DNA of 64,000 nt from contig VRUH01000007.1 of NCBI GenBank assembly GCA_019456185.1, positions 6,829 through 70,828 of the forward strand, in the 5' to 3' direction. The notes below the pieces were generated by a model. The model was not told the origin of the DNA and searched no databases. It saw only the letters and a program-made list of their open reading frames with translations. Below, piece by piece: positions 1 through 13,558 of this stretch. A program made the position numbers and the translations under genes. Position 1 is the stretch's first letter, and each line of letters opens with the position of its first letter. The stretch is from Candidatus Glassbacteria bacterium (lineage in GTDB: Bacteria; Gemmatimonadota; Glassbacteria; GWA2-58-10).

Positions 1-1503
1 CGGCGGTAAAGCTCAGCGCGACAGTCCAGATCCACCACTCGAGCTGCCTGCTCAAGAAGACTGTCTACTTCCGGGTCGGCGAACCGGGAGTAGTTGCCGG
101 CATCGCCCCAGTTTGACGAGTGGAACAGGGTGTGGAGGAAATTGTGCGCATCGGGAAAATCCCCGACCCAGCTTCCGCGGAAAATCCCGGCCTCCCCCGC
201 GCGAACAGCGGCCAGGAACGCGGCCCATTCCAGGCTCTTGAGCCGGATATCCACGCCGAGCTCGCCCAGGCAGGCCTGGATGAACACGGCCACCCGCCGG
301 TCCACCGGATCGTTGTTGTAGAGCAGGGTCAGCTCCGGCAGGCCCTCCCCGCCCGGATAACCGGATTCGGCCAGCAGGCTGCGGGCGCGCTCGGGGTCGT
401 AGGGGTAGCCGTCCAGGCCGGGATTGTGCCCCGGCAGTCCCGGCGGGACAGCTCCGGCGGAGACCACGTCGACTCCCTCGCCAAGCACTTCCACGATAGC
501 TTTCTTGTTGATCGCGAAATTGAACGCCTGGCGCAGGGTACGGTTACCCCTGAACGGCTCGCGGGTGAGGTTGAAGCCCAAGTAGCGCACCGAGAGTCCG
601 GGCCAGACATGGAGCTGTTCCGGCGTGCGCTTACGCACCAGCCCGACATGGCCGGGCGGGAGCTGGTCGAGCAGGTCCAGCTCGCCGGCGCGGTATTTCT
701 CGTAGGCCACGCTGATATTGGGCGCCACCTCGAACTCCACCCGCTCCACGGCCCGGCCGGCCGCAGGAGGCGAAGCATGTCCGGCGCGCTCCAGCACGAT
801 CCGGCTGTCGTGCTGCCAGCTGACGAAACGGAACGGCCCGGAACCGACCGGCTCCTGGCCAAAGTTGTCCGCGCCCAGCCGCTCCACTTCCTCGCGCGGA
901 ACGATACTGGCCGCGGTCATGGTCAATTGCACCAGAAACGGCGCATAGGGTTCTGCCAGACGGATCACCACCGCGCTGTCGCCCTCGGCGCTCAGCCCCT
1001 CAACGCTGTCCGCGCGTCCCTCGCGGAAATCAGCAGCCCCGGCAACCGGGGTCAGAATCCAGGGCCGCGGGCTGGCGTTGGCCGGGTCAAGCAGGCGGTG
1101 GAACGAATAGACCACATCAGCGGCCGCCACCCTGCGTCCGTTGTGAAAGCGGGCGCCGGGACGGAGCACGAACCGGAACGAGAGGCCGTCGGCTGAAACC
1201 TCCCAGCGCTCCGCCAGCGCGCCGGTCAGTCCGGCGGTGGACGGGTCCAGGCGCAGCAGGGGATCGAACAGGTTGTTGACCACACTCTGGCTCACCAAGT
1301 CCGCGCTGTGGATCGGGTCCAGGCTGGGCGGGTCGCCGGGAATCCGGAAGCGGAAAGTGAGCGTACCCTCGCCGTGCTGCCCGCGCCGATCACCGCCGGA
1401 GCATGCCGCCAGCAGCGCTAAGGACAGTATCAACCAGCAGGCAACTGTGAAAACCGAATAATGCCCACGGGCCCTGATTACCCGCGTATCCAGATAATTG
1501 GTC
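1..1503 (-). CDS. ABC transporter substrate-binding protein, family 5 (peptide/nickel type), lipoprotein. The C-terminus lies beyond the window start, so it is absent from the ORF track
   Basis: Minus-strand ATG at 1503..1501. I translated MTNYLDTRVI..LILSLALLAACSGG (lipobox)..VSWQHDSRIVLERA..GYPYDPERARSLLAESGYPGG..LKSLEWAAFLAAVRAGE with no stop down to position 1. These motifs are typical of SBP_bac_5. Confidence 0.8.
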
Positions 1504-1588
1504 ATGCCGGGAATATAGTCCGCCGGTCCCGGCCGTGTCCAGAGGGGAAGGTTTCAAAAGAACCAGGAGGCACAACCGGCAGCATCAC

Positions 1589-2308
1589 TTACTTATCAGC
1601 TCCCGGCAGTTTCCAGCGCTCCGGATCGTCCTTGACAAAATAGCCGGAGCGCACGATCCGGCCGCTTTCGGCCAGGACGTAGTCGGTGGTGTCGTGGCGG
1701 ACGAAATGCGGATTGCCAAGCAGGTTGACCCCCACCACGGAGCTGTCGGAGGGACCGGTATAGACCAGCAGGTAACGGCTGTCGTTGCGCGGGTTGGGGA
1801 CAGTGAATACCAGCCGCCAGTCCTGTCCGAAAGCAGTCAGATCGCCGATCCGGGCGGTGTCGGCGCTGAACTCGAACGGGAATGTCCCGGCCAGCCGGCG
1901 GGTCACCCGGTTACTCTCCACCGGGCCGTAAAGCAGCAGCGAGTAGTCGCGGATAAGGCCTGAATCGACCTCGCGGTCGGGGTAGACCAGAATGTCCCGG
2001 TCCAGACTCCTGCCCAGCAGGTCGGCGACCTTGTGGGCGTAATCACGCAGGGCGGCGGTGCTTTCGCCATCGGTGCCGTAGACGATCAGCAGGCCCGAGG
2101 GATCGCGGAGAAAGACATCATCGATCGGCCCCGTCAGCGGCCTGTCGCCGCGGTTGGTAAACTTGAGGACCAGCACACAGGCCAGGATCGCGATCAGGCC
2201 GAACTTGACCGACCTGTTGCCGCCAAATATGCCGCGCGATACGGGGAACACGGGCTTCCCGCCCCTGCGTCCGATACGATCAGGCTGTCCCGGGGAACGA
2301 TAGCTCAC
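1589..2308 (-). CDS. Hypothetical protein with one N-terminal transmembrane segment and a likely periplasmic domain
   Basis: 239-aa ORF with hydrophobic stretch FGLIAILACVLVLKF near the N-terminus. It starts 7 nt after the upstream lipoprotein gene ends. No motif recognised. Confidence 0.45.
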   Translation of the reverse strand: MSYRSPGQPDRIGRRGGKPVFPVSRGIFGGNRSVKFGLIAILACVLVLKFTNRGDRPLTGPIDDVFLRDPSGLLIVYGTDGESTAALRDYAHKVADLLGRSLDRDILVYPDREVDSGLIRDYSLLLYGPVESNRVTRRLAGTFPFEFSADTARIGDLTAFGQDWRLVFTVPNPRNDSRYLLVYTGPSDSSVVGVNLLGNPHFVRHDTTDYVLAESGRIVRSGYFVKDDPERWKLPGADK

Positions 2309-2315
2309 AGGGCGC

Positions 2316-3323
2316 TCAGACCAATCCCTGCGACGAGAGGTTGCGGGCCAACTCCTGCAGGTAGGAATTGACCTGCTCGGGGTCGTCCAGACCCAGAATT
2401 CCGATCACCGCGCGGCCTGACTGGACAGCCACCACCTTGCCGTAGTACGAATCCTGCGCGGTAAACAGCGGGGACTCCATCCCCTCCGGCTCCTCGACAT
2501 TCCGGCCGTATTTCTCCATGAATTCCTTGTAGACCCGGTAGCTGCGGGCAGCTTGTTCGAGGTTGTCGTGGAGGATGAAAAACAGCTTGAACTCGCTGCC
2601 GCCGGACTCGTAATCAGCGATAAAACCGTTCTTCAATTCGCTGTGCCCCAGGACGTCCTGGGCCAGATAGCGCTGAGTACCAGCCTGCAGGCCGTTCTCG
2701 GGGAATGCGGCGAGCTGGGACGGATTGCCCGCGGGCGCATCGAGGCGTGCGCTGACGGCGCCGGCGAGCACTTCCAGCAAATCGCCCTTGCCGGTCTGGA
2801 ACGCGGTGACTTTTACGTAGTAGGGTCCCTGCCAGAAATGCAGGGCATTGTCGGTGAGATAGCCCTCGGCGCCGACATCCACGCGCGGTGCCAAGCTGTT
2901 ACGCTCGGCCGAATAGATCCCGAATCCGCAGAGCTGGTCGGCCATCCGGTAGATATCCACCACCGCCTGCAGGGAGCCATCCGAGGTTTCGCAGTCGGCG
3001 GTGATGACGGCCTCGAATTTGTAGACCAGATAGCCCTCGGCGCCGCCGTTGATATACTCCCACAGGTTGTCCGGAACGAATATCCGGGGGTCTCCGCTTA
3101 GCGCCCAGCCTTCCACCTCGCCCTGAACCGGCAGCAGCGCGGTCATCTCGCCGGCCAGCCGGCTGCTGTCGCCCGCCGGCTCCGAGGCTTTTTCAGCGGC
3201 TGCCTGGCGCTCTTGTTCCGATCCGGAGCAGCCGGCAGAGATAAGCACAACAGCAGCCAGGAGAAACACCAACAGGGGTTGAACAACTGAGTGACTGCGC
3301 GACATCGCCCGATGCTCCTTCAA
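2316..3323 (-). CDS. Lipoprotein of unknown function, paralog A of a two-member family in this window
   Basis: Signal peptide plus lipobox LISAGCSG. Shares motifs with the 9865..10923 product: LWEYINGGAEGYL vs LYDLINGGADIFM, and DIYRMADQLCGFGIYS vs KIYRMEDSEAAYGIFS. Confidence 0.6.
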   Translation of the reverse strand: MKEHRAMSRSHSVVQPLLVFLLAAVVLISAGCSGSEQERQAAAEKASEPAGDSSRLAGEMTALLPVQGEVEGWALSGDPRIFVPDNLWEYINGGAEGYLVYKFEAVITADCETSDGSLQAVVDIYRMADQLCGFGIYSAERNSLAPRVDVGAEGYLTDNALHFWQGPYYVKVTAFQTGKGDLLEVLAGAVSARLDAPAGNPSQLAAFPENGLQAGTQRYLAQDVLGHSELKNGFIADYESGGSEFKLFFILHDNLEQAARSYRVYKEFMEKYGRNVEEPEGMESPLFTAQDSYYGKVVAVQSGRAVIGILGLDDPEQVNSYLQELARNLSSQGLV

Positions 3324-3380
3324 AGTTAACTGTACCGGCGGATAAGCCTGTCTCCTTCATAATATAATCAACTTTCAGGC

Positions 3381-4676
3381 TCACCACCACCTGCGATCGC
3401 GGATATACTCGTCGAATTCGCCGCGGTTGCGCAGATTGTGGCCGAAAAAGTGCATCACCAGGCCCTCGTACTCGTAAATCCAGATCTGGTTCAGGCGGCT
3501 GCCGTAAATCTCGGTGGGAGGACCGAGGAGAATATAGACCTCGCCCATATTGGTCTCCCAGCCTTCTTTCTTCTCGGTGGTAAAGTGTTTGTTGGCGTAG
3601 TCGATCCGCTCGAAATACTGGACGCGCAGTTCATTGACCGCCGTGGCCGGCACGGGATCGATTTTGGTCCAGAACTCCTCGAGCGCTTTGGCCTGCTCGT
3701 CCTCGGCGATCGCCTCCAAGCGCTCCATCTCGTTTTCCCGTACCAGGTAGCGAAGGTACTTGATCTCGTTCTTGTAATTTTTGGTCACCCAGTCGGCGCT
3801 GCGGACGATTTTGAATTTGAACGAGGTGGCGCGGGCCAGGCTGGTGTTGTTGGAATCCCGTAACTGGACGTCCAGCTCGTAGGTGCCCAGTCCCATCGTA
3901 CCCGTCGGGATTTCGATCATCTTGCGCTGGCGGATCAAACCGTCCTCCAGCGGCACGTCGACCCGCGGGAAGAGCATCAGCGCTTTCACCACCTCGGCGG
4001 TAAGCTGCCAGTCTTCGGGCAGCGAGGAGCTGTCGGCGTAGATCTCGACCAGCAGCCAGATCGGTTTACCGCTGGGGATCTTCAGGCTGCCCTCGTTCGG
4101 AATCTCGCCTTCCGGCGGCATCGGCGGTCTCCGGCCCTGTTCCAGTCCCTCGGGAGCCGCGTAGAACAACGGAGTGCTGAGCTTGGGCAGGTCAGCGTTA
4201 AAATCGGGCACCTGGACGCTCACGCGGCCGTTGCCGTAGGTGCTGGCCTGCACGTCCTTGACCTCAACGAACCCTTCGTATTTGCCCGGCACCGCGCGGA
4301 TGGTGATAGTCAACGGGTCGAAATGCTCGGCCAGGCTGGTTTCATCGTAGCTGGGAACGTGCACTTTCTTGTCCCATAAGCCCTTGAGGATATTGCGGGT
4401 CTCGGTCTCGCGCATGTTCAGGAACGTTTCGTAATGGGCCTCGTAGTACCTTTCGCCACGGTAAAACAGCAAGTGCTCGTTCTCCACGGTCAGGGTGACC
4501 AGGCAGAGGGTACTGTCCCGGCCGTCCTTGTAAAAACTCATTCTGAACCCGAACGGGACGTCATTTTCGAACGAGTGCAGGTCCTGGGCCAGGGTGATTT
4601 CCGGCTCCGGCAGCGTAACCGCCAGCGCTGCAAACAGCACTCCGGCGGTGATAATCCTCAACGATAATTTCGACAT
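3381..4676 (-). CDS. GWxTD-domain protein, secreted. Start moved to the internal Met before the signal peptide
   Basis: C-terminal KEGWETNMGEVYILLGPPTEIYG matches the GWxTD(RG)...GxP signature. MSKLSLRIITAGVLFAALAV is a signal peptide. ATG at 4676 sits 10 nt after a GGGAGGGGAG RBS. Confidence 0.6.
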   Translation of the reverse strand: MSKLSLRIITAGVLFAALAVTLPEPEITLAQDLHSFENDVPFGFRMSFYKDGRDSTLCLVTLTVENEHLLFYRGERYYEAHYETFLNMRETETRNILKGLWDKKVHVPSYDETSLAEHFDPLTITIRAVPGKYEGFVEVKDVQASTYGNGRVSVQVPDFNADLPKLSTPLFYAAPEGLEQGRRPPMPPEGEIPNEGSLKIPSGKPIWLLVEIYADSSSLPEDWQLTAEVVKALMLFPRVDVPLEDGLIRQRKMIEIPTGTMGLGTYELDVQLRDSNNTSLARATSFKFKIVRSADWVTKNYKNEIKYLRYLVRENEMERLEAIAEDEQAKALEEFWTKIDPVPATAVNELRVQYFERIDYANKHFTTEKKEGWETNMGEVYILLGPPTEIYGSRLNQIWIYEYEGLVMHFFGHNLRNRGEFDEYIRDRRWW

Positions 4677-4719
4677 GCCGTTCACTTTCTCCCCTCCCAG
4701 ATCCTGCCGGCCGATAATG

Positions 4720-6972
4720 TCAATCCCGGACAAAAAACCGGGAATTCCGGCGGAAAGACCTGCCCTGCTGGTTGAGGTCTTCAATATTGATTGAAAGCTC
4801 GTAGAGACCGTTCTCGTTGTCACTGATGTCGATAGCCAGGTCTTCGGTCACCAGATCGCTTTCCAGCGGCGCCTTCTCCTTCTCCATCGTCAGGATCACT
4901 TTCTCCTTGCCGGGACTCGCGCCCAACAGCTTCCGGAAACCGTCATATATTTTACCAAACACGTTGCGGTCGCGTTCCAGTAAAGACATCGAATAGGTGA
5001 TCCGGTAATTGCACCTGCCGTTGGAATCGGGAACCAGGTTGTAGATCTCCTGGTAGACGTACATTTTCTGCGACGGGTGGAACGTGCGCGAGGGCTCCGG
5101 CTGGACCTCCAGCCCGTGGCGCAGGAATTTGCCGGAATCCGCCGGCGAGGCGAAAATCTGCCGGGCGGCGATTATCTGGCTGGCCTGCAGTGAATCCTCC
5201 CGGTAGCTGTCCACCGTCAAGTCGCCGTTGAACGTCCCGACCGAGCCGCCGTTGAGGATTTTGATGAAATAATGGTAATCCCCGGGTTCCAGCTCGATCC
5301 GGACCAGACCCACAATCTGGCGGTCCATCAGATCCCGCGGGTTGATCGAGGTTGTATGGCGGTCGAGCTGCTCGTGCCATTTCACCTGCTCCCAGGCCTG
5401 GTTGTAAATCGCCAGCTGGCTTTTGACCTCGAACTGGAAGCCCTCGCCAGTGTTGTTGGACGTAATCGCCCGCCCGGGCACGCCGGAATAGAACTCAACC
5501 GTACTTTTGCCATTTTCCCGGCCGCGAAATTCCACGAAATCGTACGAGCTTTCCAGCCTGTCGGTATAGGGATAGAGGACGCTTTCGCTGGACAGGGCTT
5601 TTTTCAGGGAAGTGATATTCTGGTCGTATTCATCGAGATGGGTGAACGGATCGTAGGGATTACGCGAGAGGCGGGCGTATATTCCGTTGCCGATTTCCAT
5701 CCGCGAACTGTACAGCTCGGTCATCCACTGGAGCCTGTGCGACTCCTCGGGCGCCGTATGGCTGACCCCTCCCAGCACGCCGCGAAAGTTCATAACCGCG
5801 GCCGTAAGCGAGGTAACCAGCTGGTAGTCGTAACTGCCCTTGAGCGCCACGAAATTGATAATCATGTCGCCGTCGTCGCGATAGTACACCCAGGTCACGT
5901 TGGGATGAAGGCCCTCGCCCATATGCTTGACCGACCGGTTGGGAGCCCCGTGGCGGATATGAATCACCCCGCGGTCATCGTAGCCCAGCGCCTCCTCCGG
6001 CACATAGCCCATCGAGGGATGAATGGAGGGACTGCGGCTGATAAACGGTACGCGGAACAGCGAATCGGCGGCCTGAAGGCGGCCATAGTGCTGGACAATC
6101 CTCACGCCGGGGGTAAGTCCGAGTTCGTGGTCTCGTTTGAGCCAGAAAGAACGGAAAAACTCCTCTGCCCGCTCCGGGCCGATATTCTTGTAAGTGTCAT
6201 GCTCTTCCCTGCCGGCCAGCATGACCAGGTCGTGAAAAAAAGGCTGCATCTGCTCCCGGGTTTTGATATCCGAGACGCCCTGCCAGTAATAGCGGAGTCC
6301 CTCGGCATATTTGGACCTGTAAAAATTTATCCGCGCCAGCTCCAGTTCCACCAGCGGATCGCCCTCGGCGACCTGGTGTTCCACGGCCTCGCGCAGAATC
6401 CGCTCGGCATTGACCAGATCTCCGCTGGCTTTGTGCAGTACGGCCAGCTTGAGGATGATGTCCCGCTTCAGGCCCCCAAGCTCGTAAGCCCGCCGCATGT
6501 GATCCAGCGCCAGGCCGGTATCGCTCTGGTCGAAACGGCGCATATAGGCGCTGCCGAGCCAGTAATGGGCCACCCACCATTCCGGGGCCAGCTCGACCGC
6601 GGTCTTTAGATGCCCTATCGCGCGGGAGATGTTGTCGTGGTGGAACAGGCGCTCCAAGGCCTGGAAGATGATAATCCGGCTGTCCCTGCTGATCAACTGG
6701 CTGCGGCCCAGCCCCACATGTACGCGGGAGTCGTCGGGTGCAATCTCCCTCGCCTGCTTAAAGGTGTGGCCGGCCAGTTCGCTGTCATCGTTCAGCAGCT
6801 GCTGCTCGCCGAGGCGGATCAGGGTGGTGAGCCTGGTGCGGACCGTGTCCTGGGGGATAGTCCGGTCGGGAATCATCTCAGCGGCGTTATCACCGGCGGC
6901 GGCAGCGGAAGGTCCGGCGGCTGCGATCAGCCACAAGAGCAGTACGGCCGTCGGGGAGGATAATTTTTGCAT
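4720..6972 (-). CDS. TPR-repeat plus GWxTD-domain protein, secreted
   Basis: 750 aa with an N-terminal signal (LLLWLIAAAGPSAAAA), helical TPR-like repeats (WLGSAYMRRFD..) and the signature EALGYDDRGVIHIRHGAPN. It lies 43 nt upstream of the other GWxTD gene. Confidence 0.6.
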   Translation of the reverse strand: MQKLSSPTAVLLLWLIAAAGPSAAAAGDNAAEMIPDRTIPQDTVRTRLTTLIRLGEQQLLNDDSELAGHTFKQAREIAPDDSRVHVGLGRSQLISRDSRIIIFQALERLFHHDNISRAIGHLKTAVELAPEWWVAHYWLGSAYMRRFDQSDTGLALDHMRRAYELGGLKRDIILKLAVLHKASGDLVNAERILREAVEHQVAEGDPLVELELARINFYRSKYAEGLRYYWQGVSDIKTREQMQPFFHDLVMLAGREEHDTYKNIGPERAEEFFRSFWLKRDHELGLTPGVRIVQHYGRLQAADSLFRVPFISRSPSIHPSMGYVPEEALGYDDRGVIHIRHGAPNRSVKHMGEGLHPNVTWVYYRDDGDMIINFVALKGSYDYQLVTSLTAAVMNFRGVLGGVSHTAPEESHRLQWMTELYSSRMEIGNGIYARLSRNPYDPFTHLDEYDQNITSLKKALSSESVLYPYTDRLESSYDFVEFRGRENGKSTVEFYSGVPGRAITSNNTGEGFQFEVKSQLAIYNQAWEQVKWHEQLDRHTTSINPRDLMDRQIVGLVRIELEPGDYHYFIKILNGGSVGTFNGDLTVDSYREDSLQASQIIAARQIFASPADSGKFLRHGLEVQPEPSRTFHPSQKMYVYQEIYNLVPDSNGRCNYRITYSMSLLERDRNVFGKIYDGFRKLLGASPGKEKVILTMEKEKAPLESDLVTEDLAIDISDNENGLYELSINIEDLNQQGRSFRRNSRFFVRD

Positions 6973-7160
6973 AATCTATATCCACCACCCGTCAACTGAC
7001 GGGTTCAGATGTGATCCGGTCTGTTGCACAGCTTTATACATTGCCTGTCACCCAAAGGTTCCGGTGCTTTGATATTTGCCGCGAAATACCTTAAAACGCA
7101 GCCGTGCACTATATTTATAACAGTCCATCAGCCATTTTTCCACTCTCATTTTCTGCCTGA

Positions 7161-7194
7161 AGCCCAAAAAAAGGCGCCCCGCCCGGGCCGCCCA
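7161..7194 (-). terminator. Rho-independent terminator after the polyferredoxin gene
   Basis: On the minus strand a GC-rich imperfect hairpin (GGGCGGCCCGGGCGGGGCGCC) is followed by TTTTTTT. It lies 33 nt past the stop at 7227. Confidence 0.5.
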
Positions 7195-7226
7195 TCAACG
7201 CTCTCACATGTTTTCAACCGCTCATC

Positions 7227-8843
7227 TCAAACTTCGCCCCCGCCGTAGACATCCAGCAGCAGCTGATTTTCCTGACTGCGGGACTCGCCGATCGAGGTGC
7301 AGTAAATTCCCGGCTTGTCGACCAGCGGGCAGGCATACTCGCAGATTCCGCAGCCGATACACAGGTGCGGGTCCACTTTGGGCTGCTTGATCACCTTGGA
7401 AACTCCCTCGCGGTCTGTTACCTCCACTTCCTCGAAATAGATCGCCTTCTTGGGCGTCGGGCAGACTTCCTCGCAGACGATGCAGCTGCGCCCGAGCGAG
7501 TATGGGAGACAGCGGTTCATGTCGAAAATCGCCAGGCCGATAACCGTCCGGTGCTTCTGCTCGGTGGTCAGTAGCTCGATAGCGCCCGTGGGACAGACCT
7601 GACCGCAGAGGGTGCAGTTGAACTCGCAGTAGCCGAGCTGCATTTTCAGGTACGGGGACCAGAACCCCTCCAGGCCGGCCTCCATCAGGGTGGGATGGAT
7701 CGCGTTCTTGATGCAGACTTTCATGCACTCTCCGCACTTGATACAGCGCTTGAGGAACTCCTCCTCGGCCACCGCGCCCGGCGGACGGATCAGGACGGGA
7801 TTGAACTTCCTGCCCTCGCGTCCGCTCCCCACCCGCGCTGACGGCGGCGGCTTGCGCGGATCGATCCGGAACAGGGCCAGCGCGCCCACAGCCGCGGCCG
7901 CCGAGGCCAGCACAGCCCGTTTACCGATATCCACCGAGGCTTCTCCGCGGGCGGGCAGGCCCAGACCCAGGCTGATCGAATCGTGGGGGCAGGCCTCCAC
8001 GCAGTTCCAACAGGTCAGGCACTCGCTGCGCATCCAGCTTTCTGTGCTGTGCGGCTCGCAGGCTCCCTCGCAGTTGCGCTTGCAGAGCATGCAGTTGGTG
8101 CAGGTCTGTTTGTCCACTTTCAGCTTGAGCAGGCTGAACCGGCCCAGCAGTCCCAGCAGGGCGCCCAGCGGACAGAGGTAGCGGCACCAGAATCTGCGGC
8201 GGAGTTGGTTCAGCACCGCAATCGCCACGAACAGCAGACCGATAAACAGGCCCTGGTAGAAATAGGGCTGCTCGAAAGACAGCACGTGGCTGCGCAGGAA
8301 CAGGAACACAGGCTCGACAATCGCGCTCAGCCAGGGCCGGTCCAACACCAGCAGCGGGTAGAACAGCGCCCGCGTGAGAAAATTGAACACCGGGTTAACC
8401 GCCAGGCTGAACGAGCGGATCAGCACGGAGAACGGGTCGAGGAAGCCGACAATCTGCAAGCCCAGGATTGATGCGATCAGCAAAAAGATAACGGCCACGT
8501 ATTTCCAGCTCTGGCGGCGGTCGTAGCGGTTGCGGCGGACATTTTCGGCCGTCTTGAGCCGGTTGTGGCTCAGGACGTGGTTCAGCGTGCCCATCGGGCA
8601 GACCCAGGCGCAGAAAAAGCGGCCGAACGCCACGGTAACCGCCACGGTCAGCAGGCTCCAGAGCATCATCGCGGGCAGGCTGTGAGCGGCGAAAAAAGCG
8701 GCCGCGGCCACCAGGGGATCGAAATCGAAGAAAATCTTGACCGGGTAACTGATCTGGTCGGTGCCCTTGTACTCGGTCATCACCAGCAGGAAGAGGAACA
8801 GAACGAAAAACAGAACCTGGCTGACCCTGCGCGCGTTCCGCAT
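7227..8843 (-). CDS. Membrane polyferredoxin of the NapH/MauN type (4Fe-4S binding protein)
   Basis: Two FxxCxWxCP membrane motifs (GRFFCAWVCPMG and RRFWCRYLCPLG). Several CxxCxxCxxxCP ferredoxin clusters (CIKCGECMKVC, CTLCGQVCP, CIGCGICEYACP). Multiple hydrophobic helices. Confidence 0.7.
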   Translation of the reverse strand: MRNARRVSQVLFFVLFLFLLVMTEYKGTDQISYPVKIFFDFDPLVAAAAFFAAHSLPAMMLWSLLTVAVTVAFGRFFCAWVCPMGTLNHVLSHNRLKTAENVRRNRYDRRQSWKYVAVIFLLIASILGLQIVGFLDPFSVLIRSFSLAVNPVFNFLTRALFYPLLVLDRPWLSAIVEPVFLFLRSHVLSFEQPYFYQGLFIGLLFVAIAVLNQLRRRFWCRYLCPLGALLGLLGRFSLLKLKVDKQTCTNCMLCKRNCEGACEPHSTESWMRSECLTCWNCVEACPHDSISLGLGLPARGEASVDIGKRAVLASAAAAVGALALFRIDPRKPPPSARVGSGREGRKFNPVLIRPPGAVAEEEFLKRCIKCGECMKVCIKNAIHPTLMEAGLEGFWSPYLKMQLGYCEFNCTLCGQVCPTGAIELLTTEQKHRTVIGLAIFDMNRCLPYSLGRSCIVCEEVCPTPKKAIYFEEVEVTDREGVSKVIKQPKVDPHLCIGCGICEYACPLVDKPGIYCTSIGESRSQENQLLLDVYGGGEV

Positions 8844-9787
8844 CAGATCTCGACCTCCGAGGTCCGGACGGCGTTCAGATCGAGAGTGCCCAGGCCCATC
8901 CGGCTGCCGATTTCAAGATAGCCGATCGCGGCGGGATCGATCCCGAAAAAGCCCGCGGCGCGGGCATCGGCGGCCACCGGGTCTACTGAGGCGATCACCG
9001 TGTCCAGCTGCTTGACATCGCCCAGGCTGCCGCCCGAGGGTCCGTTGGCGGTCAGAATCCGCACGGCGTCGATCACGGTCAGGGCCGGGGCGAAAAAGCG
9101 GGTCATCTCGGCAATCGAGAGGTGGACATCCTGGTGGAGCTGGTTGCGCCGTCCGCCCATCAGCCCGTAGAAGTTCTTCATCCCCAGCGTCAGGCGGCTC
9201 AACGAGTGGTGCTTGGCGATCGGGACGTTGATAATCCGGTCCACCTCCAGCGCCTCGCGGTAAACCGGCCACTCCTTGATCAACTCGCCGCCCACATTCA
9301 CTCGCCGGAAATTGTAGTCCTCCAGGAACGGCACCTCCGCGCCGACTTCCTCGGCCGCGGCTTTGATCCCGCTGCGCACGTAACAGCGCCTAGGGTCGTT
9401 GATCGTGTTGTCCAGCACGGTCACTTTGGCCGCGCCGGCATCCAGGCACATGGCGCACAGCTCGGCGACAACCTCGGGATTTGTCGTGGCCGCCTGGGCC
9501 GGGACCCTGTCCCAGCCGATATTGGGCTTGATCATCACCTTGTCGCCCCGGCTGACAAACACGCCCATCCCGCCGAGTTCCTCCACCGCCCGCCGGGTAA
9601 TCGCGCGGGCGTCCGCACCCTTGACCACCGACATTTCAGCCCCGACCACGTTAACCGGCCTGGGGCTGCGTCCGCCGGCGGCGGCAACTGACCCGCCCGA
9701 GCCCTCGCCTCCCCCACAGGCCCCCAGAGCGGCCGCGGCAGCCGAGCCACCCAGGAGTTTGAGAAAGCTTTTTCTATTCAGAGACAT
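8843..9787 (-). CDS. DUF362-domain protein carrying a Tat-like (RK variant) signal and a lipobox
   Basis: MSLNRKSFLKLLGG..AALGACGGG at the N-terminus, then a DUF362-like core (MIKPNIGW.., NVPIAKHHSLSRLTLGMKNFYG). Its stop overlaps the polyferredoxin start as ATGA, which suggests translational coupling. Confidence 0.55.
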   Translation of the reverse strand: MSLNRKSFLKLLGGSAAAAALGACGGGEGSGGSVAAAGGRSPRPVNVVGAEMSVVKGADARAITRRAVEELGGMGVFVSRGDKVMIKPNIGWDRVPAQAATTNPEVVAELCAMCLDAGAAKVTVLDNTINDPRRCYVRSGIKAAAEEVGAEVPFLEDYNFRRVNVGGELIKEWPVYREALEVDRIINVPIAKHHSLSRLTLGMKNFYGLMGGRRNQLHQDVHLSIAEMTRFFAPALTVIDAVRILTANGPSGGSLGDVKQLDTVIASVDPVAADARAAGFFGIDPAAIGYLEIGSRMGLGTLDLNAVRTSEVEI

Positions 9788-9864
9788 AGTTAGGTCCTCC
9801 TGAGACCTTAAACGTCTTAATCGTGCCGATGGTACACTTTTGCCGATAACTGCCGGTGAGCCTG

Positions 9865-10923
9865 TTAATTCTTGCTGCCCGAGCCCGTGGACATGCCGCC
9901 GCCGGGGGGATTACCCGTCCCGTGCGGTGATGCCGACCGCTCCGGCTTGACCGCACTGTGGGGATTGCTTTTCCCCGTGTCGTGCAGCGCACCGGCCTGA
10001 TCGAACAGGGCGGTAATCTGGGTTGTCCGCAGGATTACCACGTCCATTCTGTCCAGATGAGTGTAGACTATCCGCTTGTCGGTGATCTTGGCGGTCGCGC
10101 TGTCGGCGGCGGCCAGATCGGCCTTGTCACGGTAAAAGGCGGTCACCGAAGAGAAAACAGCCTCGGCGAGGGTGGAATCCGGGTACTGGACCACCAGGAA
10201 ACTGGCCGGGTTGCTGTTTTCGCGCATCCGGTAGGCACCAAACGCGCCGGGAATGCTGTCGCTGATGGTAAACACGTTCTCGTCACCGACAAAGCGTAGT
10301 GAATTCAGCCCCAGCGGACCCTCGAGATAGGTCTCCGTATGCGGGATCAATCCGCGGCGCGGCAGCAGGGACAGGATATCGGGCCAATCATCCGGCTCAT
10401 CGGCCAGTTCAAGCTCGATTCGCGAGGCGATCTCATCGAGAGCCGCGGCGGTAACCTGATCGCGGTCCGCAGCCTGAACATCGACAAAATATTCTCCCGC
10501 ACAGAACAGGACCCGGTAGTCTCCGCGAGCGCCGATAGTGCCTTTCGAGACCGGGCGGTGCGAAATCTTCCGGTTGACACTGAAGATCCCGTACGCGGCT
10601 TCGGAGTCTTCCATGCGGTAGATCTTGGCCACGATCGAAACGCCGCTGCCGGATGCGTACTCTTTGACCGCGGTTTCCTCGCAGCCGAACTCCATGAAGA
10701 TATCCGCGCCGCCGTTAATGAGATCATAGAGTTCGCGGCCGCTGTAGACTTGGGCTTGACTGCCGGCAACCGTGCCCTCCGGCAGTTCGCTCAACGGGAA
10801 CAGGGCCGTCAACTCGCTCGGCCCATCAGAGCCCGCTTGCTTAGCTCCGCCACAGGCAATCAGCGCAGTAATAACCGCAGCCAGCAGCAAGCGGGTGATC
10901 CCGTTTAGAGAATTCTGACTCAT
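9865..10923 (-). CDS. Lipoprotein of unknown function, paralog B
   Basis: Lipobox LIACGG. Shared motifs with the 2316..3323 product (LINGGAD, KIYRMEDSEAAYGIFS). Confidence 0.6.
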   Translation of the reverse strand: MSQNSLNGITRLLLAAVITALIACGGAKQAGSDGPSELTALFPLSELPEGTVAGSQAQVYSGRELYDLINGGADIFMEFGCEETAVKEYASGSGVSIVAKIYRMEDSEAAYGIFSVNRKISHRPVSKGTIGARGDYRVLFCAGEYFVDVQAADRDQVTAAALDEIASRIELELADEPDDWPDILSLLPRRGLIPHTETYLEGPLGLNSLRFVGDENVFTISDSIPGAFGAYRMRENSNPASFLVVQYPDSTLAEAVFSSVTAFYRDKADLAAADSATAKITDKRIVYTHLDRMDVVILRTTQITALFDQAGALHDTGKSNPHSAVKPERSASPHGTGNPPGGGMSTGSGSKN

Positions 10924-11027
10924 CCAGACCTCCAGCCGGGCATCGGTCTTCCCGGCAGTAGCTGATAACCTGCTCAGTTAAAGGTTGGAATTTACCGGAT
11001 CATAACCGAATTGTCAATTGCGGGCGG

Positions 11028-11942
11028 TCATCCCTGACAGCCCTCAAAAAAGCGTATCGTGGCCAGCAGGCATTCACGCTGATCCGGTTCCGGCCGGTAA
11101 CCCAGCGATTTGAGGCGCGAGATGTCGGCGTAGCTGGTATGGATATCGCCCGAACGGGGACCGGCATGGATCAGCTTGCTCGAGGAGCCGGTGAGGTCGA
11201 TAATCTGCCGGGCGATATCGTTGATCGTGATATGTTCGCCGCGGGCGACGTTGCACACCGGACCACCTTTTTCCGAAGCCAGTACGCAGGCGGAAACGAC
11301 GTCTTTGACATAGACGAAATCGCGTACCTGGGTACCGTCGCCGTACACCGTGATATCCTCGCCACGCAAGGCCCTGTGAATGAAAATCGGAATAGCGGCG
11401 GCATACTGGCTCCGGGGGTCCTGGCGCGGCCCGAAGACGTTGAAAAACCTGAGCGGTCCCGCCCCCACGCCCCACTCGTCCTCGAAAATCTTCAGGTAAT
11501 ACTCGCCATCGAGCTTGGTCACAGCGTAAGGACTCTTGGGTTCGGGCAGCATATCCTCGCGTTTGGGCACCACCGGGTTATCGCCATAGACCGCCGCGCT
11601 GGAGGTGAATACCACGCGTTCCACTCCGTGTTCACGGGCGGCTTCGAGGACATTGAGCGTACCCTGTGTATTGATCTCCACGCACTCCGCCGGCTTTCCC
11701 AGACTTTCCGGCACACTGATCATCGCCGCCAGGTGAAACACCCGGTCCACGCCCTCGAACAGCGGAAACAGTCTCTCCCTGTCCGTAATCGTCACCTCGT
11801 GGAACTGATGGTTCAGGCCATCCAGGTTGCTCCGGTAACCGGTACGAAGGTTGTCGACAACTACTACCTCGTGGCCGGCATGAAAATGCTCGACAACGTG
11901 ACTGCCGATAAAACCGGCTCCGCCGGTAACCAGAATGCGCAT
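11028..11942 (-). CDS. NAD-dependent epimerase/dehydratase (UDP-sugar 4-epimerase-like, SDR family)
   Basis: MRILVTGGAGFIGSH Rossmann motif at the adjusted start (ATG 11942). Catalytic YAVTK (YxxxK). Length is typical for GalE/WcaG-like enzymes. Confidence 0.8.
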   Translation of the reverse strand: MRILVTGGAGFIGSHVVEHFHAGHEVVVVDNLRTGYRSNLDGLNHQFHEVTITDRERLFPLFEGVDRVFHLAAMISVPESLGKPAECVEINTQGTLNVLEAAREHGVERVVFTSSAAVYGDNPVVPKREDMLPEPKSPYAVTKLDGEYYLKIFEDEWGVGAGPLRFFNVFGPRQDPRSQYAAAIPIFIHRALRGEDITVYGDGTQVRDFVYVKDVVSACVLASEKGGPVCNVARGEHITINDIARQIIDLTGSSSKLIHAGPRSGDIHTSYADISRLKSLGYRPEPDQRECLLATIRFFEGCQG

Positions 11943-12193
11943 CAGCAAGTGCTCCGGGACAATGAAAAACTTACGGACCGTCCTGAATTCCAACCGGCTG
12001 TTAATTTGCCACCCTCCCGCTGATAAATCAAGCGCATACGGTGGGCGCAAGCCGTTTCAAAACATCCACGTCATTGACAAAATTTGGCAGTTCCGCTAAC
12101 TTTCGGACTCTTTCCCGGTTATACCAGAACCGATTACCCGGATAATAATTAAGCGTTTGATCTCATCATAAAGTTTGTCTGCAAGGAGGACCG

Positions 12194-13558
12194 GTGGCTA
12201 ATACATTTTCGACTACGCCGAAAACAGTTCCCGAGGTGTCCACTGCCAACCGCACGATTAAAACCCGGATTCCGGTACCTGAATCTCTGCCTGTTATCGA
12301 TAAACTGCGCAAGTACGAGCCGATCTCGATGTCCGGCCAGCCGCTGGTGCTGTGGAACAAGGGTGAGGGCGCAACTGTCTGCGACTCGTGGGGCAACCGC
12401 TGGATCGACTGGTCGAGCGGAGTGCTGATCACCAACGCGGGCCACAACAACCCCCGAATCCGTCAGGCGATTATCGACCAGGCCGAGTCGGGGCTGCTGA
12501 CCAGCTACTGTTTTCCCAACAACCCCAGGGCGCGCCTTGCCGAACTGCTGGTGGAGATTACGCCGAAAGAACTGACCAAGGCGTTTATCCTCACCACCGG
12601 CAGCGAAACTGTGGAATGCTGCCTTAAGCTGATGCGCACCAACGGCCTGCGCAAACACGGCAAAGACAAGATAACGATTGTCAGCTTCACTAACGCGTTT
12701 CACGGCCGCACCCTGGGAGCCCAGCAGCTCGGCGGGATCCCCAAGCTGAAAGACTGGATCGTCAACACCGATCCCAATATCGTACAGGTAGCGTTCCCCG
12801 ACGGGTTCCGTAACCCGGACACCAGTTTCGCGGGGTTCGAGAAAGCCCTGGCCGAACAAGGGGTCACACCGGAGTCGGTGGCCGGCGTGATCCTGGAAAC
12901 TTACCAGGGCGGCGGCGCCAGTTTCGCTCCTGTCGAGTATATCATGGCCCTGCGTGAGTGGTGCGACAAGCATGGAGCGCTGCTCACGTTCGATGATGTC
13001 CAGGCAGGGTTCGGACGCTGCGGCAAGATGTTCGGCTTCGAGCACTACGGAGTCATCCCCGACCTGACATGTTTCGGCAAGGGTATCAGCAGCAGCCTGC
13101 CGGTTAGCGCCGTGCTGGGCCGCGAGGAAGTGATGAACCTCTACGGTCCGAACGAAATGACCAGCACACATACGGGCAACCCCGTCTGCGCGATGGCCGC
13201 GGTGGCCAATATCGGATCGATTATCGATGACAAGCTGGTCGAGAACGCCGCCGCCATGGGCCAGGTGCTGCTCGACGCTCTGGCGGGTCTGATGACCAAG
13301 TACGACTCGGTGATCGGCGCAGTACACGGCAAAGGCCTGGTGGCCGGGGTTCATGTAGTCAAGCCGGGTGGGATCGAGCCGGATGCCGACCTGGCCTGGC
13401 ACGTGGTCAACAGCTGCGTGGAAAAGGGCCTGCTGATGTTCGCGCCGGTTGGTTTCGGCGGCGGCACCGTGAAAATCTGCCCGCCGCTGGTGATCAACCG
13501 CGATCAGGTGGAGGAAGGCCTGGCCGTGCTGGACGAGGCTTTCGAGGAAAATCTCTAG
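12194..13558 (+). CDS. Class-III (PLP-dependent) aminotransferase family protein
   Basis: 454 aa with motifs LTFDDVQAGFGRCGKMFGFEHYG and TCFGKGISSSLP (Schiff-base Lys region). GTG start 3 nt after AAGGAGG. Confidence 0.8.
   Translation: MANTFSTTPKTVPEVSTANRTIKTRIPVPESLPVIDKLRKYEPISMSGQPLVLWNKGEGATVCDSWGNRWIDWSSGVLITNAGHNNPRIRQAIIDQAESGLLTSYCFPNNPRARLAELLVEITPKELTKAFILTTGSETVECCLKLMRTNGLRKHGKDKITIVSFTNAFHGRTLGAQQLGGIPKLKDWIVNTDPNIVQVAFPDGFRNPDTSFAGFEKALAEQGVTPESVAGVILETYQGGGASFAPVEYIMALREWCDKHGALLTFDDVQAGFGRCGKMFGFEHYGVIPDLTCFGKGISSSLPVSAVLGREEVMNLYGPNEMTSTHTGNPVCAMAAVANIGSIIDDKLVENAAAMGQVLLDALAGLMTKYDSVIGAVHGKGLVAGVHVVKPGGIEPDADLAWHVVNSCVEKGLLMFAPVGFGGGTVKICPPLVINRDQVEEGLAVLDEAFEENL

Follow-up and report, generated by a model that had tools for sequence, protein, structure and literature searches.

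Domains of the RseB/MucB and Mog1/PsbP/DcrB/LpqN types work by binding of a partner or a lipid and not by catalysis. Those of the PsbP type serve membrane redox complexes (PSII, NDH) as extrinsic accessory subunits. All of these domains fall into the same broad fold class as DUF6599, the family of two predicted lipoproteins encoded in the window analysed here, i.e. the whole stretch of 64,000 nucleotides from a Candidatus Glassbacteria bacterium, and the accessory role of the PsbP type may be the closest analogy to how DUF6599 works. The fold of DUF6599 is also common to the PknH extracellular sensor domain (4esq), TiME (7cu8), TP0453 (3k8g) and TM1622 (1vr8). However, these proteins have no sequence or profile similarity to DUF6599 and match a single lobe-sized region, whereas DUF6599 has two. 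Their gene contexts (mycobacterial kinase, spirochete outer membrane) are also unrelated to that of DUF6599.

DUF362, a family encoded beside one of the two copies, shares Pfam clan CL0471 with LarA/DUF2088 (PMC11770544), and a literature search on DUF362 yielded nothing beyond this clan statement. No paper was found in searches for DUF6599, for GWxTD, or for aldo-keto reductase, twin-arginine and 4Fe-4S combined. DUF6599 is a large exported family of poorly studied sediment and soil phyla, without a solved structure. Its name was already known, and the gene context described below is new.

The DUF6599 family and its two copies in the window

Both proteins matched PF20244 (DUF6599) in Pfam, copy 1 with 140.1 bits (E 7.7e-41) and copy 2 with 103.9 bits (E 9.9e-30), at a gathering threshold of 27 bits. 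Relatives are labelled 'DUF6599 family protein' at NCBI, and the family is thus not nameless, as the initial annotation had assumed. The annotation was right in assigning no function, as DUF6599 is catalogued without one. The window copies and PF20244 are alike in size, signature motifs and N-terminal export signal. The Pfam model spans approximately residues 71-250, corresponding to the N-lobe and linker, and the C-terminal lobe lies outside the model. No other Pfam domain was found in either copy. The family comprises about 7,500 clusters at 50% identity from at least 8 phyla, mostly of uncultured bacteria, and a signature pattern derived from the family alignment was matched in at least 554 species genomes. 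Sequence prediction placed a hydrophobic region at the N-terminus of 247 out of 259 members, and a lipobox cysteine in 77.

Copies 1 and 2 are 29% identical over 254 aa (BLASTP, E = 1e-17), which is far beyond chance. The relationship proposed between the two lipoproteins, for which a pairwise alignment had been suggested as a check, was thereby confirmed, and both open reading frames and all four motif strings were recovered (Table 1). The shared motifs are the family signature of DUF6599, an L[WYF][ED][YF]I[ND]G[GA]A helix and an IYxM...FGIY segment, both present in each copy. No third copy was found in the 64 kb window by tblastn. The coordinates given earlier were correct for copy 2 and for the end of copy 1, while the start of copy 1 was moved from 3323 to 3305. 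The longest open reading frame starts with TTG at 3323, but the ATG at 3305 is preceded by an AAGGAG Shine-Dalgarno sequence 7 nt upstream, and the protein of 329 aa translated from this ATG is 100% identical to the deposited protein P0001 of a Candidatus Glassbacteria MAG, which points to ATG 3305 as the likely start. Copy 2 exactly matches the deposited protein P0119. A lipobox cysteine follows the hydrophobic N-terminal signal in copy 1 (ISAGC, Cys32 counted from the TTG start) and in copy 2 (LIAC, Cys24).

Judged by its sequence, copy 2 is a diverged, faster-evolving paralog specific to Glassbacteria and an atypical member of DUF6599. Only five close homologs were found in 5.8 billion proteins. 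Copy 1 has all four residues of the polar set E140, R141, K171 and D291, whereas copy 2 has kept the arginine, with N, D and I in place of E140, K171 and D291, respectively, the alignment being less certain in the C-terminal half. The C-terminal tail of copy 2 is rich in Gly, Pro and Ser and predicted to be disordered, and the terminal helix is lost. In the AF2 model of copy 2 (pLDDT 81.4, pTM 0.77), residues 310-352 of the tail were of low confidence.

Table 1. Features of the window around the two DUF6599 genes.
Feature	Position	Strand	Remarks
SBP_bac_5 solute-binding protein gene	3..1403	-	truncated by window edge; tblastn with L001 ortholog, 79% identity
239-aa membrane-anchored protein	1589..2308	-	starts 7 nt past copy 1 stop; lineage-specific
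DUF6599 copy 1	2316..3305	-	329 aa from ATG 3305; predicted lipoprotein; widespread canonical family type
Copy 1 motif DIYRMADQLCGFGIYS	2910..2957	-	residues 123-138; strand end and second helix of N-terminal lobe; checked by translation
Copy 1 motif LWEYINGGAEGYL	3027..3065	-	residues 87-99; first helix of N-terminal lobe; checked by translation
GWxTD-domain protein	3381..4685	-	434 aa; TIGR04514 99 bits; homologs in 4/80 loci
TPR + GWxTD protein	4720..6972	-	homologs in only 3/80 DUF6599 loci
Terminator-like GC hairpin + T7 run	7172..7184	-	43 nt past polyferredoxin stop
Membrane polyferredoxin	7227..8843	-	538 aa; Fer4_5 + Fer4 domains; fusion of NapH-like N-part and NapG-like C-part
DUF362 protein	8843..9787	-	PF04015 E 1.4e-50; Tat-like signal NRKSFLK; lipobox LGAC
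DUF6599 copy 2	9865..10923	-	352 aa; predicted lipoprotein; diverged Glassbacteria-specific paralog
Copy 2 motif KIYRMEDSEAAYGIFS	10579..10626	-	checked by translation
Copy 2 motif LYDLINGGADIFM	10693..10731	-	checked by translation
Sigma-70-like promoter candidate TTGACA-17-TAAATT	10989..11017	-	intergenic, upstream of copy 2; 10/12 consensus matches

Fold and conserved residues

The AF2 model of copy 1 (pLDDT 92.3, pTM 0.83) contains helices at residues 88-100 and 130-140 and a strand at residues 119-127. As modelled, DUF6599 is a two-lobed alpha/beta protein of about 300 residues, the lobe-sized units of which resemble envelope sensor and ligand-binding domains, the resemblance going no further than a common alpha/beta sandwich. 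Phmmer sequence searches and hmmsearch profile searches of the PDB gave noise only, and no PDB match at E <= 1e-3 was obtained with Foldseek. No SBP family HMM or SBP fold was matched that would identify DUF6599 as an ABC-type solute-binding protein. A comparison of the two lobes with hhalign for internal duplication was weak (probability 40%, E 3e-4).

In an alignment of 198 sequences, the nearly or fully invariant sites were L87, I91, G93, A95, G135 and G151, all of which are hydrophobic or small. L87 and G93 of helix 1 were invariant, I91 was conserved in 99% and A95 in 97% of the sequences, and in the helix 2 segment Y125 was conserved in 95%, F134 in 92% and G135 in 99%. Conserved polar sites in the same alignment were E89 (E/D 96%), N/D92 (100%), E140 (91%), R141 (82%), K171 (90%), S/T216 (97%) and D291 (83%). 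No conserved His or Cys was found among the 198 sequences. The INGGA and IYxM...GI(Y/F)S motifs correspond to the pair of helices along one face of this lobe, the N-terminal one, and their invariant glycines and hydrophobic residues make up the core. The seven polar sites, on or near these helices, would be candidates for a binding surface.

Gene neighbourhood in the window and across phyla

The gene order agrees with the placement of copy 1 in a GWxTD/SBP cluster, after the TPR-GWxTD and GWxTD genes and before the 239-aa and truncated SBP_bac_5 genes, and of copy 2 as the immediate upstream neighbour of the DUF362-polyferredoxin pair. The initial annotation had treated these as two separate contexts, but comparison between genomes showed that both copies flank one conserved Glassbacteria cluster. 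For the window itself the results are mostly a clean-up, with a name for the family, a structural role for the motifs and a single conserved cluster for both copies. A TPR-GWxTD gene in the position between polyferredoxin and copy 1 was seen only in Glassbacteria and close relatives. The other GWxTD gene probably starts at 4685 and not at 4823, judging from the ortholog at locus L001. The 239-aa protein had no Pfam or NCBIfam match, and its homologs were confined to four Glassbacteria-type loci. Between the window and L001, the identity was 63-67% for DUF6599 and 84-86% for the redox core, and DUF6599 therefore evolves faster than the redox core.

The start of the polyferredoxin gene overlaps the stop of the DUF362 gene. 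The polyferredoxin matched NapH (E 4e-30, residues 176-292) and NapG (E 2e-27, residues 345-513), with scores far under the NapG/NapH equivalog cutoffs (105 vs 234 bits and 96 vs 269 bits). In contrast to the NapGH quinol dehydrogenase, there is no NapA, NapB or NapC, and a DUF362 protein of uncharacterised activity takes the partner's place. The combination of NapH-like and NapG-like parts suggests that electrons pass between the quinone pool and a partner in the periplasm. The hairpin downstream of polyferredoxin is a possible end of a copy 2-DUF362-polyferredoxin transcription unit, which copy 2 would head in Glassbacteria. The promoter candidate upstream of copy 2 is weak evidence, since promoter-like sites were not enriched over shuffles. 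An Rfam scan of positions 1..12500 for a riboswitch that could name a ligand gave nothing at E <= 1. A nickel link between the SBP_bac_5 transporter and the LarA-clan DUF362 protein was rejected, as only their co-location in Glassbacteria was behind it.

Linkage was measured in 46 species-level DUF6599 loci whose flanks extended for 4.5 kb or more to either side. Profiling of these neighbourhoods, as had been proposed, revealed a recurring redox-type partner gene within 4.5 kb in 40 of the 46 loci (87%). The recurring partners were a Tat-exported aldo-keto reductase with two 4Fe-4S motifs (AKR-FeS), a Tat-exported DUF362 protein with a NapH/NapG-like polyferredoxin, a second DUF362 type and an AmmeMemoRadiSam radical SAM enzyme. 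AKR-FeS was present at 24 loci, any DUF362 at 27, DUF362 with polyferredoxin at 16 and all three at 12. The linked loci span Glassbacteria, Acidobacteriota, KSB1, Latescibacterota, Ignavibacteria, NC10, Desulfobacterota/delta-proteobacteria and Bacteroidota. In other phyla, genes of the copy 1 type follow immediately after the same pair of DUF362 and polyferredoxin genes. AKR-FeS, DUF362b and radical SAM genes were not found in the window. The median gap was 8 nt from AKR to DUF6599 (at most 150 nt in 19 of 20 cases), 33 nt from polyferredoxin to DUF6599 and 42 nt from DUF6599 to AKR. At locus L003, independent gene calls gave an overlap of 4 nt. An RRxFL-type Tat motif was observed in 37 of 43 AKR-FeS and 19 of 23 DUF362a proteins. 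In AKR-FeS, H162 of the D/Y/K/H tetrad was invariant and the remaining three residues were present in at least 90% of the sequences; seven of the eight cysteines were invariant, and C378 was present in at least 90%. At the Aminicenantes-type loci the neighbouring DUF362b gene is transcribed divergently, and a Tat motif is missing from most of the DUF362b proteins (present in 4 of 20); this part of the association may therefore be mere conserved synteny. Unannotated neighbours of 240-265 aa were considered as one hidden partner family and discarded, as the proteins were unrelated between loci.

In the reverse direction, 35 AKR-FeS metagenome loci could be evaluated, and 14 of them (40%) had DUF6599, as did two of six DUF362-polyferredoxin loci. 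The AKR-FeS scan was based on an alignment of closer sequences (A4), the broader one (A3) being too diverse. DUF362 homologs of the window type were paired with polyferredoxin at all six loci. No common substitute neighbour was found at AKR-FeS loci without DUF6599. The partial reverse linkage is in line with an accessory and not a core subunit. Many redox modules were without DUF6599.

Proposed role of DUF6599

With a probability of roughly 0.5, DUF6599 serves Tat-exported redox modules in the periplasm as an optional adaptor or ligand-binding partner, the gene linkage being the sole functional clue. This reading builds on the family assignment, the fold class, the export signals and a gene linkage seen from either side, the reverse being partial. 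One redox module would consist of the DUF362 protein and the NapH/NapG-like membrane polyferredoxin, and the other of the aldo-keto reductase with two 4Fe-4S motifs. In a binding or adaptor role, DUF6599 would be in physical contact with the redox proteins and would either capture or present a substrate for the enzymes or serve as their docking site at the membrane, and the two copies may pair. The operon setting with DUF362, NapGH-like polyferredoxin and two-4Fe-4S AKR offers a testable hypothesis for four 'unknown' families together. Copy 1 may serve the GWxTD, 239-aa or SBP genes here, considering the two GWxTD genes and the terminator-like site that separate it from polyferredoxin.

The same features of the window are in line with DUF6599 being a general lipoprotein of the envelope, either structural or for the binding of lipids or ligands, comparable to TP0453, TiME, LpqN or RseB, in which case the redox adjacency would imply no shared function and the window proteins would serve the GWxTD, TPR, 239-aa and SBP cluster. 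The best structural matches of DUF6599 are indeed proteins of the envelope that bind lipids or ligands. GWxTD genes adjoin copy 1, the gene for the membrane-anchored 239-aa protein begins 7 nt after it, the terminator-like site sets it apart from the redox genes, and this layout is kept in Glassbacteria. However, GWxTD, 239-aa and TPR neighbours occurred at only 3-4 of 80 loci, whereas the redox partners recur in 87% of the full-flank loci, in at least 8 phyla and with operon-like gaps, which makes a general lipoprotein unlikely. Still more improbable is a role of DUF6599 as a sensor module outside the cytoplasm, comparable to the PknH sensor or RseB, with signalling via neighbouring regulators. 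Neighbouring signalling genes are convergent and not co-transcribed with DUF6599, none of the long family members tested was fused to a kinase, anti-sigma or GGDEF domain, and no regulator gene flanks copy 1 or copy 2 in the window.

The initial annotation had taken the INGGA motif as a sign of a conserved fold or an active site. Of these two the conserved fold is the better reading; an active site is disfavoured by the invariant positions, which are L, G, I and A, and by the structural neighbours, all of them non-enzymatic envelope binding or sensor domains. The well-conserved polar residues, together with the fusion of one family member to an FGE-sulfatase domain, could be taken to mean that DUF6599 is an enzyme with INGGA and ER motifs at its active site, but this is very improbable and the family is most likely non-enzymatic.

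The preferred reading of an optional adaptor can be extended, tentatively, to an undescribed but widespread periplasmic electron-transfer system, in which DUF6599 would be the substrate-capture or docking subunit. The system would include the Tat-exported DUF362 protein of the LarA clan, the NapH/NapG-fusion polyferredoxin with its link to the quinone pool, and the Tat-exported AKR with two 4Fe-4S clusters in place of NAD(P)H. It would reduce or oxidise an extracytoplasmic organic substrate of carbonyl or quinone type in uncultured anaerobic sediment bacteria of many phyla. Copies 1 and 2 would form a heterodimer, mirrored by the tandem DUF6599-DUF6599 fusions observed in 7 of the best 150 family representatives.

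The two DUF6599 paralogs

Both genes were found as open reading frames on the minus strand where the initial annotation had placed them, and its four motif strings were exact translations of the DNA (Table). Copy 1 most likely begins at an in-frame ATG at 3305 and not at the TTG of the longest open reading frame, because an AAGGAG Shine-Dalgarno sequence lies 7 nt upstream of this ATG and the deposited protein P0001 (329 aa) is identical to copy 1 read from there. Database entries identical to the two copies were FVQ81_04080 and FVQ81_04105. BLASTP aligned the two proteins above background, with 29% identity over 254 residues (E = 1e-17). A third copy was not found in the 64-kb window by tblastn with both copies as queries.

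No named family could be given in the initial annotation. This was settled by matches to the Pfam entry PF20244, "Family of unknown function (DUF6599)", with 140.1 bits (E 7.7e-41) for copy 1 and 103.9 bits (E 9.9e-30) for copy 2, at a gathering score of 27. There is no NCBIfam model for DUF6599, relatives in the databases carry either the name "DUF6599 family protein" or the label "hypothetical protein", and no mention of DUF6599 was found in a full-text literature search. From the Pfam matches, the labels and the lack of papers, the two proteins are therefore new members of a known, named but uncharacterised family. A profile of 47 members searched against 1.84 billion 50%-identity representatives detected 7,519 proteins at E <= 1e-3, of which 5,676 also passed E <= 1e-10. 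The pattern L[WYF][ED][YF]I[ND]G[GA]A[EDP] had at least 600 matching stretches in GTDB contigs (one genome per species), at least 554 of them encoding relatives. Among the matches listed, relatives occurred in Glassbacteria, Gemmatimonadota, Acidobacteriota, Aminicenantes, KSB1, Latescibacterota, Ignavibacteria, Bacteroidota, NC10, Planctomycetota and several Desulfobacterota or delta-proteobacterial lineages, and nearly all source genomes were MAGs.

The description of both copies as secreted lipoproteins was a reasonable prediction, since each has a hydrophobic N-terminus followed by a lipobox-type cysteine (...LISAGC in copy 1, ...ALIAC in copy 2). A hydrophobic N-terminal region was present in 247 of 259 full-length members and was accompanied by a lipobox cysteine in 77; the family is predicted to be exported, about one third of its members as lipoproteins.

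Copy 1 is of the widespread type, with 118 database matches at identities as low as 24%. A search of 5.8 billion proteins gave only five close relatives of copy 2; four have 59-61% identity and the fifth 41%, and several of the five share contigs with copy-1 orthologs. Four family-conserved residues are changed in copy 2 (W73 to T, E140 to N, K171 to D and D291 to I). At L006, a related locus labelled Gemmatimonadales, an epimerase gene is followed directly by DUF362 and copy 2 is absent. Together these findings make copy 2 a diverged paralog specific to its lineage.

Features of the cluster, in gene order, with identity to the orthologs at L001, another Glassbacteria locus
Feature	Coordinates	Strand	Description	Identity
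Copy 2	9865..10923	-	352 aa, ATG start	63%
Copy 2 motif strings	10693..10731; 10579..10626
Copy 2 tail	9865..9993	-	residues about 310-352, low confidence
DUF362	8843..9787	-	77-nt gap after copy 2; Tat-like NRKSFLK motif and lipobox	86%
Polyferredoxin	7227..8843	-	membrane NapH/NapG-like fusion; start overlaps DUF362 stop	84%
Two GWxTD-domain genes in succession	3381..6972	-
TPR-GWxTD		-	N-terminal TPR region; after 254-nt gap	75%
GWxTD		-	longest-ORF start 4823 overlaps first GWxTD gene; ortholog-supported start 4685	77%
Copy 1	2316..3305	-	corrected from 2316..3323	67%
Copy 1, longest ORF	2316..3323	-	335 aa, TTG start
Copy 1 motif strings	3027..3065; 2910..2957
239-aa protein	1589..2308	-	N-terminal membrane anchor; start 7 nt past copy 1 stop	64%
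SBP_bac_5		-	truncated by window edge	79%
Shadow ORF, rejected	120..1196	+	antisense to SBP_bac_5
Shadow ORF, rejected	5272..6609	+	antisense to TPR-GWxTD
Shadow ORF, rejected	12149..13402	-	antisense to aminotransferase

Predicted structure and conserved residues

AlphaFold2 with the family alignment gave a confident model of copy 1 (mean pLDDT 92.3, pTM 0.83), and a good AlphaFold2 model was obtained for copy 2 (mean pLDDT 81.4, pTM 0.77). The order of elements was the same in both: an N-terminal lobe of two helices and about seven strands, a Pro-containing linker, and a C-terminal lobe of one long helix and about six strands. The copy 1 model ends in an additional helix, which most members have but copy 2 lacks; its place is taken by about 40 disordered residues rich in Gly, Pro and Ser (…SASPHGTGNPPGGGMSTGSGSKN). 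The structural neighbours, with their two scores in brackets, were the PknH extracellular sensor (4esq; 11.3, 12.0), TiME (7cu8; 11.0, 11.3), TM1622 (1vr8; 11.5, 9.3), Dip2269 (3v7b; 10.4, 9.1), TP0453 (3k8g; 9.0, 9.4), the Rv0999 ortholog (4tmd; 8.0, 8.9) and RseB/MucB (8.4-8.6, 7.6). The predicted fold thus has two lobes and is of the type seen in binding or sensor domains of the cell envelope. Foldseek returned no match at E <= 1e-3, sequence and profile searches returned none in the PDB, and by these searches the two-lobe architecture is absent from solved structures. When the profiles of the two lobes were compared, they matched weakly but in register (93 columns, E 3e-4, probability 40%), which is consistent with an ancient internal duplication without proving it.

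In a 198-sequence alignment, all invariant or near-invariant positions (L87, I91, G93, A95, F103, Y125, F134, G135, G151, F163, Y169, P208 and Y238) were small, hydrophobic or aromatic, and no His or Cys was conserved. The motifs LWEYINGGAEGYL and FGIYSAER correspond to helices H88-100 and H130-140 of the copy 1 model, and the invariant glycines in the middle of both would permit tight helix packing. INGGA had initially been proposed to mark a conserved fold or active site; the second reading is disfavoured because no His or Cys is conserved, the invariant positions are of the kinds named, and the structural neighbours are non-enzymatic. The best candidates for a binding surface, judged from the same alignment, are the polar residues E89 (E/D 96%), N/D92 (100%), E140 (91%), R141 (82%), K171 (90%), S/T216 (97%) and D291 (83%).

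Gene neighbourhood and linkage to exported redox genes

All genes between 10923 and the window edge are carried on the minus strand. As initially described, copy 2 was found immediately upstream of the DUF362-polyferredoxin pair and copy 1 within the GWxTD/SBP cluster. A sigma-70-like site (TTGACA-17-TAAATT) in the intergenic region before copy 2 and a GC hairpin with a T7 run downstream of the polyferredoxin stop, both consensus matches only, suggest two transcription units. An Rfam scan found no element in the region of the two copies. The whole arrangement is kept at the Glassbacteria loci L001, L008 and L090. Of 80 DUF6599 loci, only 3-4 had the GWxTD pair and the 239-aa protein as neighbours, and these genes look like an insertion particular to the lineage. 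The 239-aa protein had no Pfam or NCBIfam match, and its conservation was limited to Glassbacteria and their close relatives (4 of the 80 loci); for the GWxTD family (TIGR04514/PF20094) no literature was found in our search. Long antisense shadow ORFs such as those rejected here are typical at about 60% GC.

Open reading frames were called in 80 species-level loci anchored on DUF6599 and clustered by all-against-all BLASTP, and recurrent clusters were annotated. Five neighbour types recurred: AKR-FeS, an aldo-keto reductase that is about 407 aa long, bears a twin-arginine signal and ends in a 4Fe-4S dicluster domain (37 loci); DUF362a, the Tat-signal subtype of the window (22); the same NapH/G-like polyferredoxin as in the window (23); DUF362b, a second, divergently transcribed type (19); and an AmmeMemoRadiSam-type radical SAM protein (17; TIGR04337, 381 bits). 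Of the 46 loci flanked by 4.5 kb or more on each side, 40 (87%) had at least one of the five within 4.5 kb; AKR-FeS was present in 24, any DUF362 in 27, DUF362a with polyferredoxin in 16 and the three together in 12. Spacing was operon-like, with median gaps of 8 nt from AKR to DUF6599, 33 nt from polyferredoxin to DUF6599, 42 nt from DUF6599 to AKR and 0 nt from DUF362 to polyferredoxin; at L003 database gene calls gave a 4-nt overlap. Since the order DUF362-polyferredoxin-DUF6599 recurs in Acidobacteriota, KSB1, Latescibacterota, Ignavibacteria, NC10, Bacteroidota and delta-proteobacterial MAGs, copy 1 is the counterpart of the DUF6599 gene directly after polyferredoxin in those phyla. With RRxFL-type motifs in 37 of 43 AKR-FeS and 19 of 23 DUF362a proteins, the partners are predicted exported redox proteins. 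Across phyla, DUF6599 is closely tied to genes for Tat-exported Fe-S redox proteins.

In the opposite direction, linkage was only partial. Polyferredoxin adjoined DUF362 at all six distant loci (L085-L090) anchored on DUF362 homologs of about 50-60% identity on long contigs, at L089 directly after nuoJKLMN, and DUF6599 was near the pair at only two. DUF6599 occurred in 34 of 80 metagenome loci anchored on Tat-AKR-FeS, and in 14 of the 35 (40%) that had 1.5 kb or more of sequence on each side, 12 times adjacent and on the same strand; no common substitute neighbour was found among the metagenome loci lacking it. DUF6599 is nearly always beside a redox module, whereas the modules are frequently without DUF6599, and an optional accessory rather than a core subunit is therefore expected.

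At E <= 1e-10, at least 7,917 proteins belong to this DUF362 subfamily; DUF362 is part of the LarA clan. Tat-DUF362 and the NapH/NapG-fusion polyferredoxin together resemble a periplasmic redox module, so far uncharacterised, with a link to quinones. In AKR-FeS, RRxF is invariant, as are H162 of the catalytic AKR tetrad (D88, Y93, K119, H162) and seven of the eight cysteines in two CxxCxxCxxxC motifs; the other three tetrad residues and the eighth cysteine, C378, are kept in at least 90% of sequences. The Fe-S clusters may replace the nicotinamide cofactor, because an exported AKR would be without NAD(P)H. No literature was found on Tat-exported AKR-FeS. The subfamily is widespread (L054:3018-4241 (+) and 42 other ORFs in L005-L084; also L091-L170), with at least 571 copies in metagenome contigs.

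Among radical SAM genes beside DUF362b and DUF6599, 14 of 17 had an N-terminal RRxFLK-like twin-arginine motif (L020:2116-3237 (-) and 16 other loci, Aminicenantes-type), which is odd on a SAM-dependent enzyme and could be an artefact of longest-ORF starts.

Proposed role of DUF6599

Fold and linkage suggest that DUF6599 may be an adaptor for periplasmic redox modules, which would bind a substrate or the enzymes themselves at a putative surface formed by the conserved polar residues; the modules would draw on or feed the quinone pool via the NapH/G-like polyferredoxin. A general role in binding lipids or ligands in the envelope, with no relation to the redox genes, would suit the predicted fold and is unlikely beside the tight forward linkage. 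A sensor, to which the PknH neighbour would be akin, seems quite improbable. An enzyme is very improbable, given the residue conservation and the non-enzymatic structural neighbours.

Two findings go beyond the databases, and neither was described in the literature searched: the predicted PknH/TiME-like fold with two lobes, and the strong association in operons with the Tat-exported DUF362-polyferredoxin and AKR-FeS modules. Although drawn only from predicted structure and genomic context, they give this large family a useful lead that can be tested.

An unannotated secreted protein of about 261 aa (L088:4720-5505 (-)), unrelated to the 239-aa protein of the window, adjoined DUF6599 and AKR-FeS in eight loci, with homologs at L011, L017, L019, L025, L027, L043, L059 and L065. 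One DUF6599 member was fused to an FGE-sulfatase domain (P0277). Seven of the top 150 family representatives were tandem DUF6599-DUF6599 proteins of 610-690 aa (P0249, P0257, P0312, P0330, P0331, P0375 and P0387), so it is plausible that two DUF6599 units act together, which fits the two paralogs in one Glassbacteria cluster.
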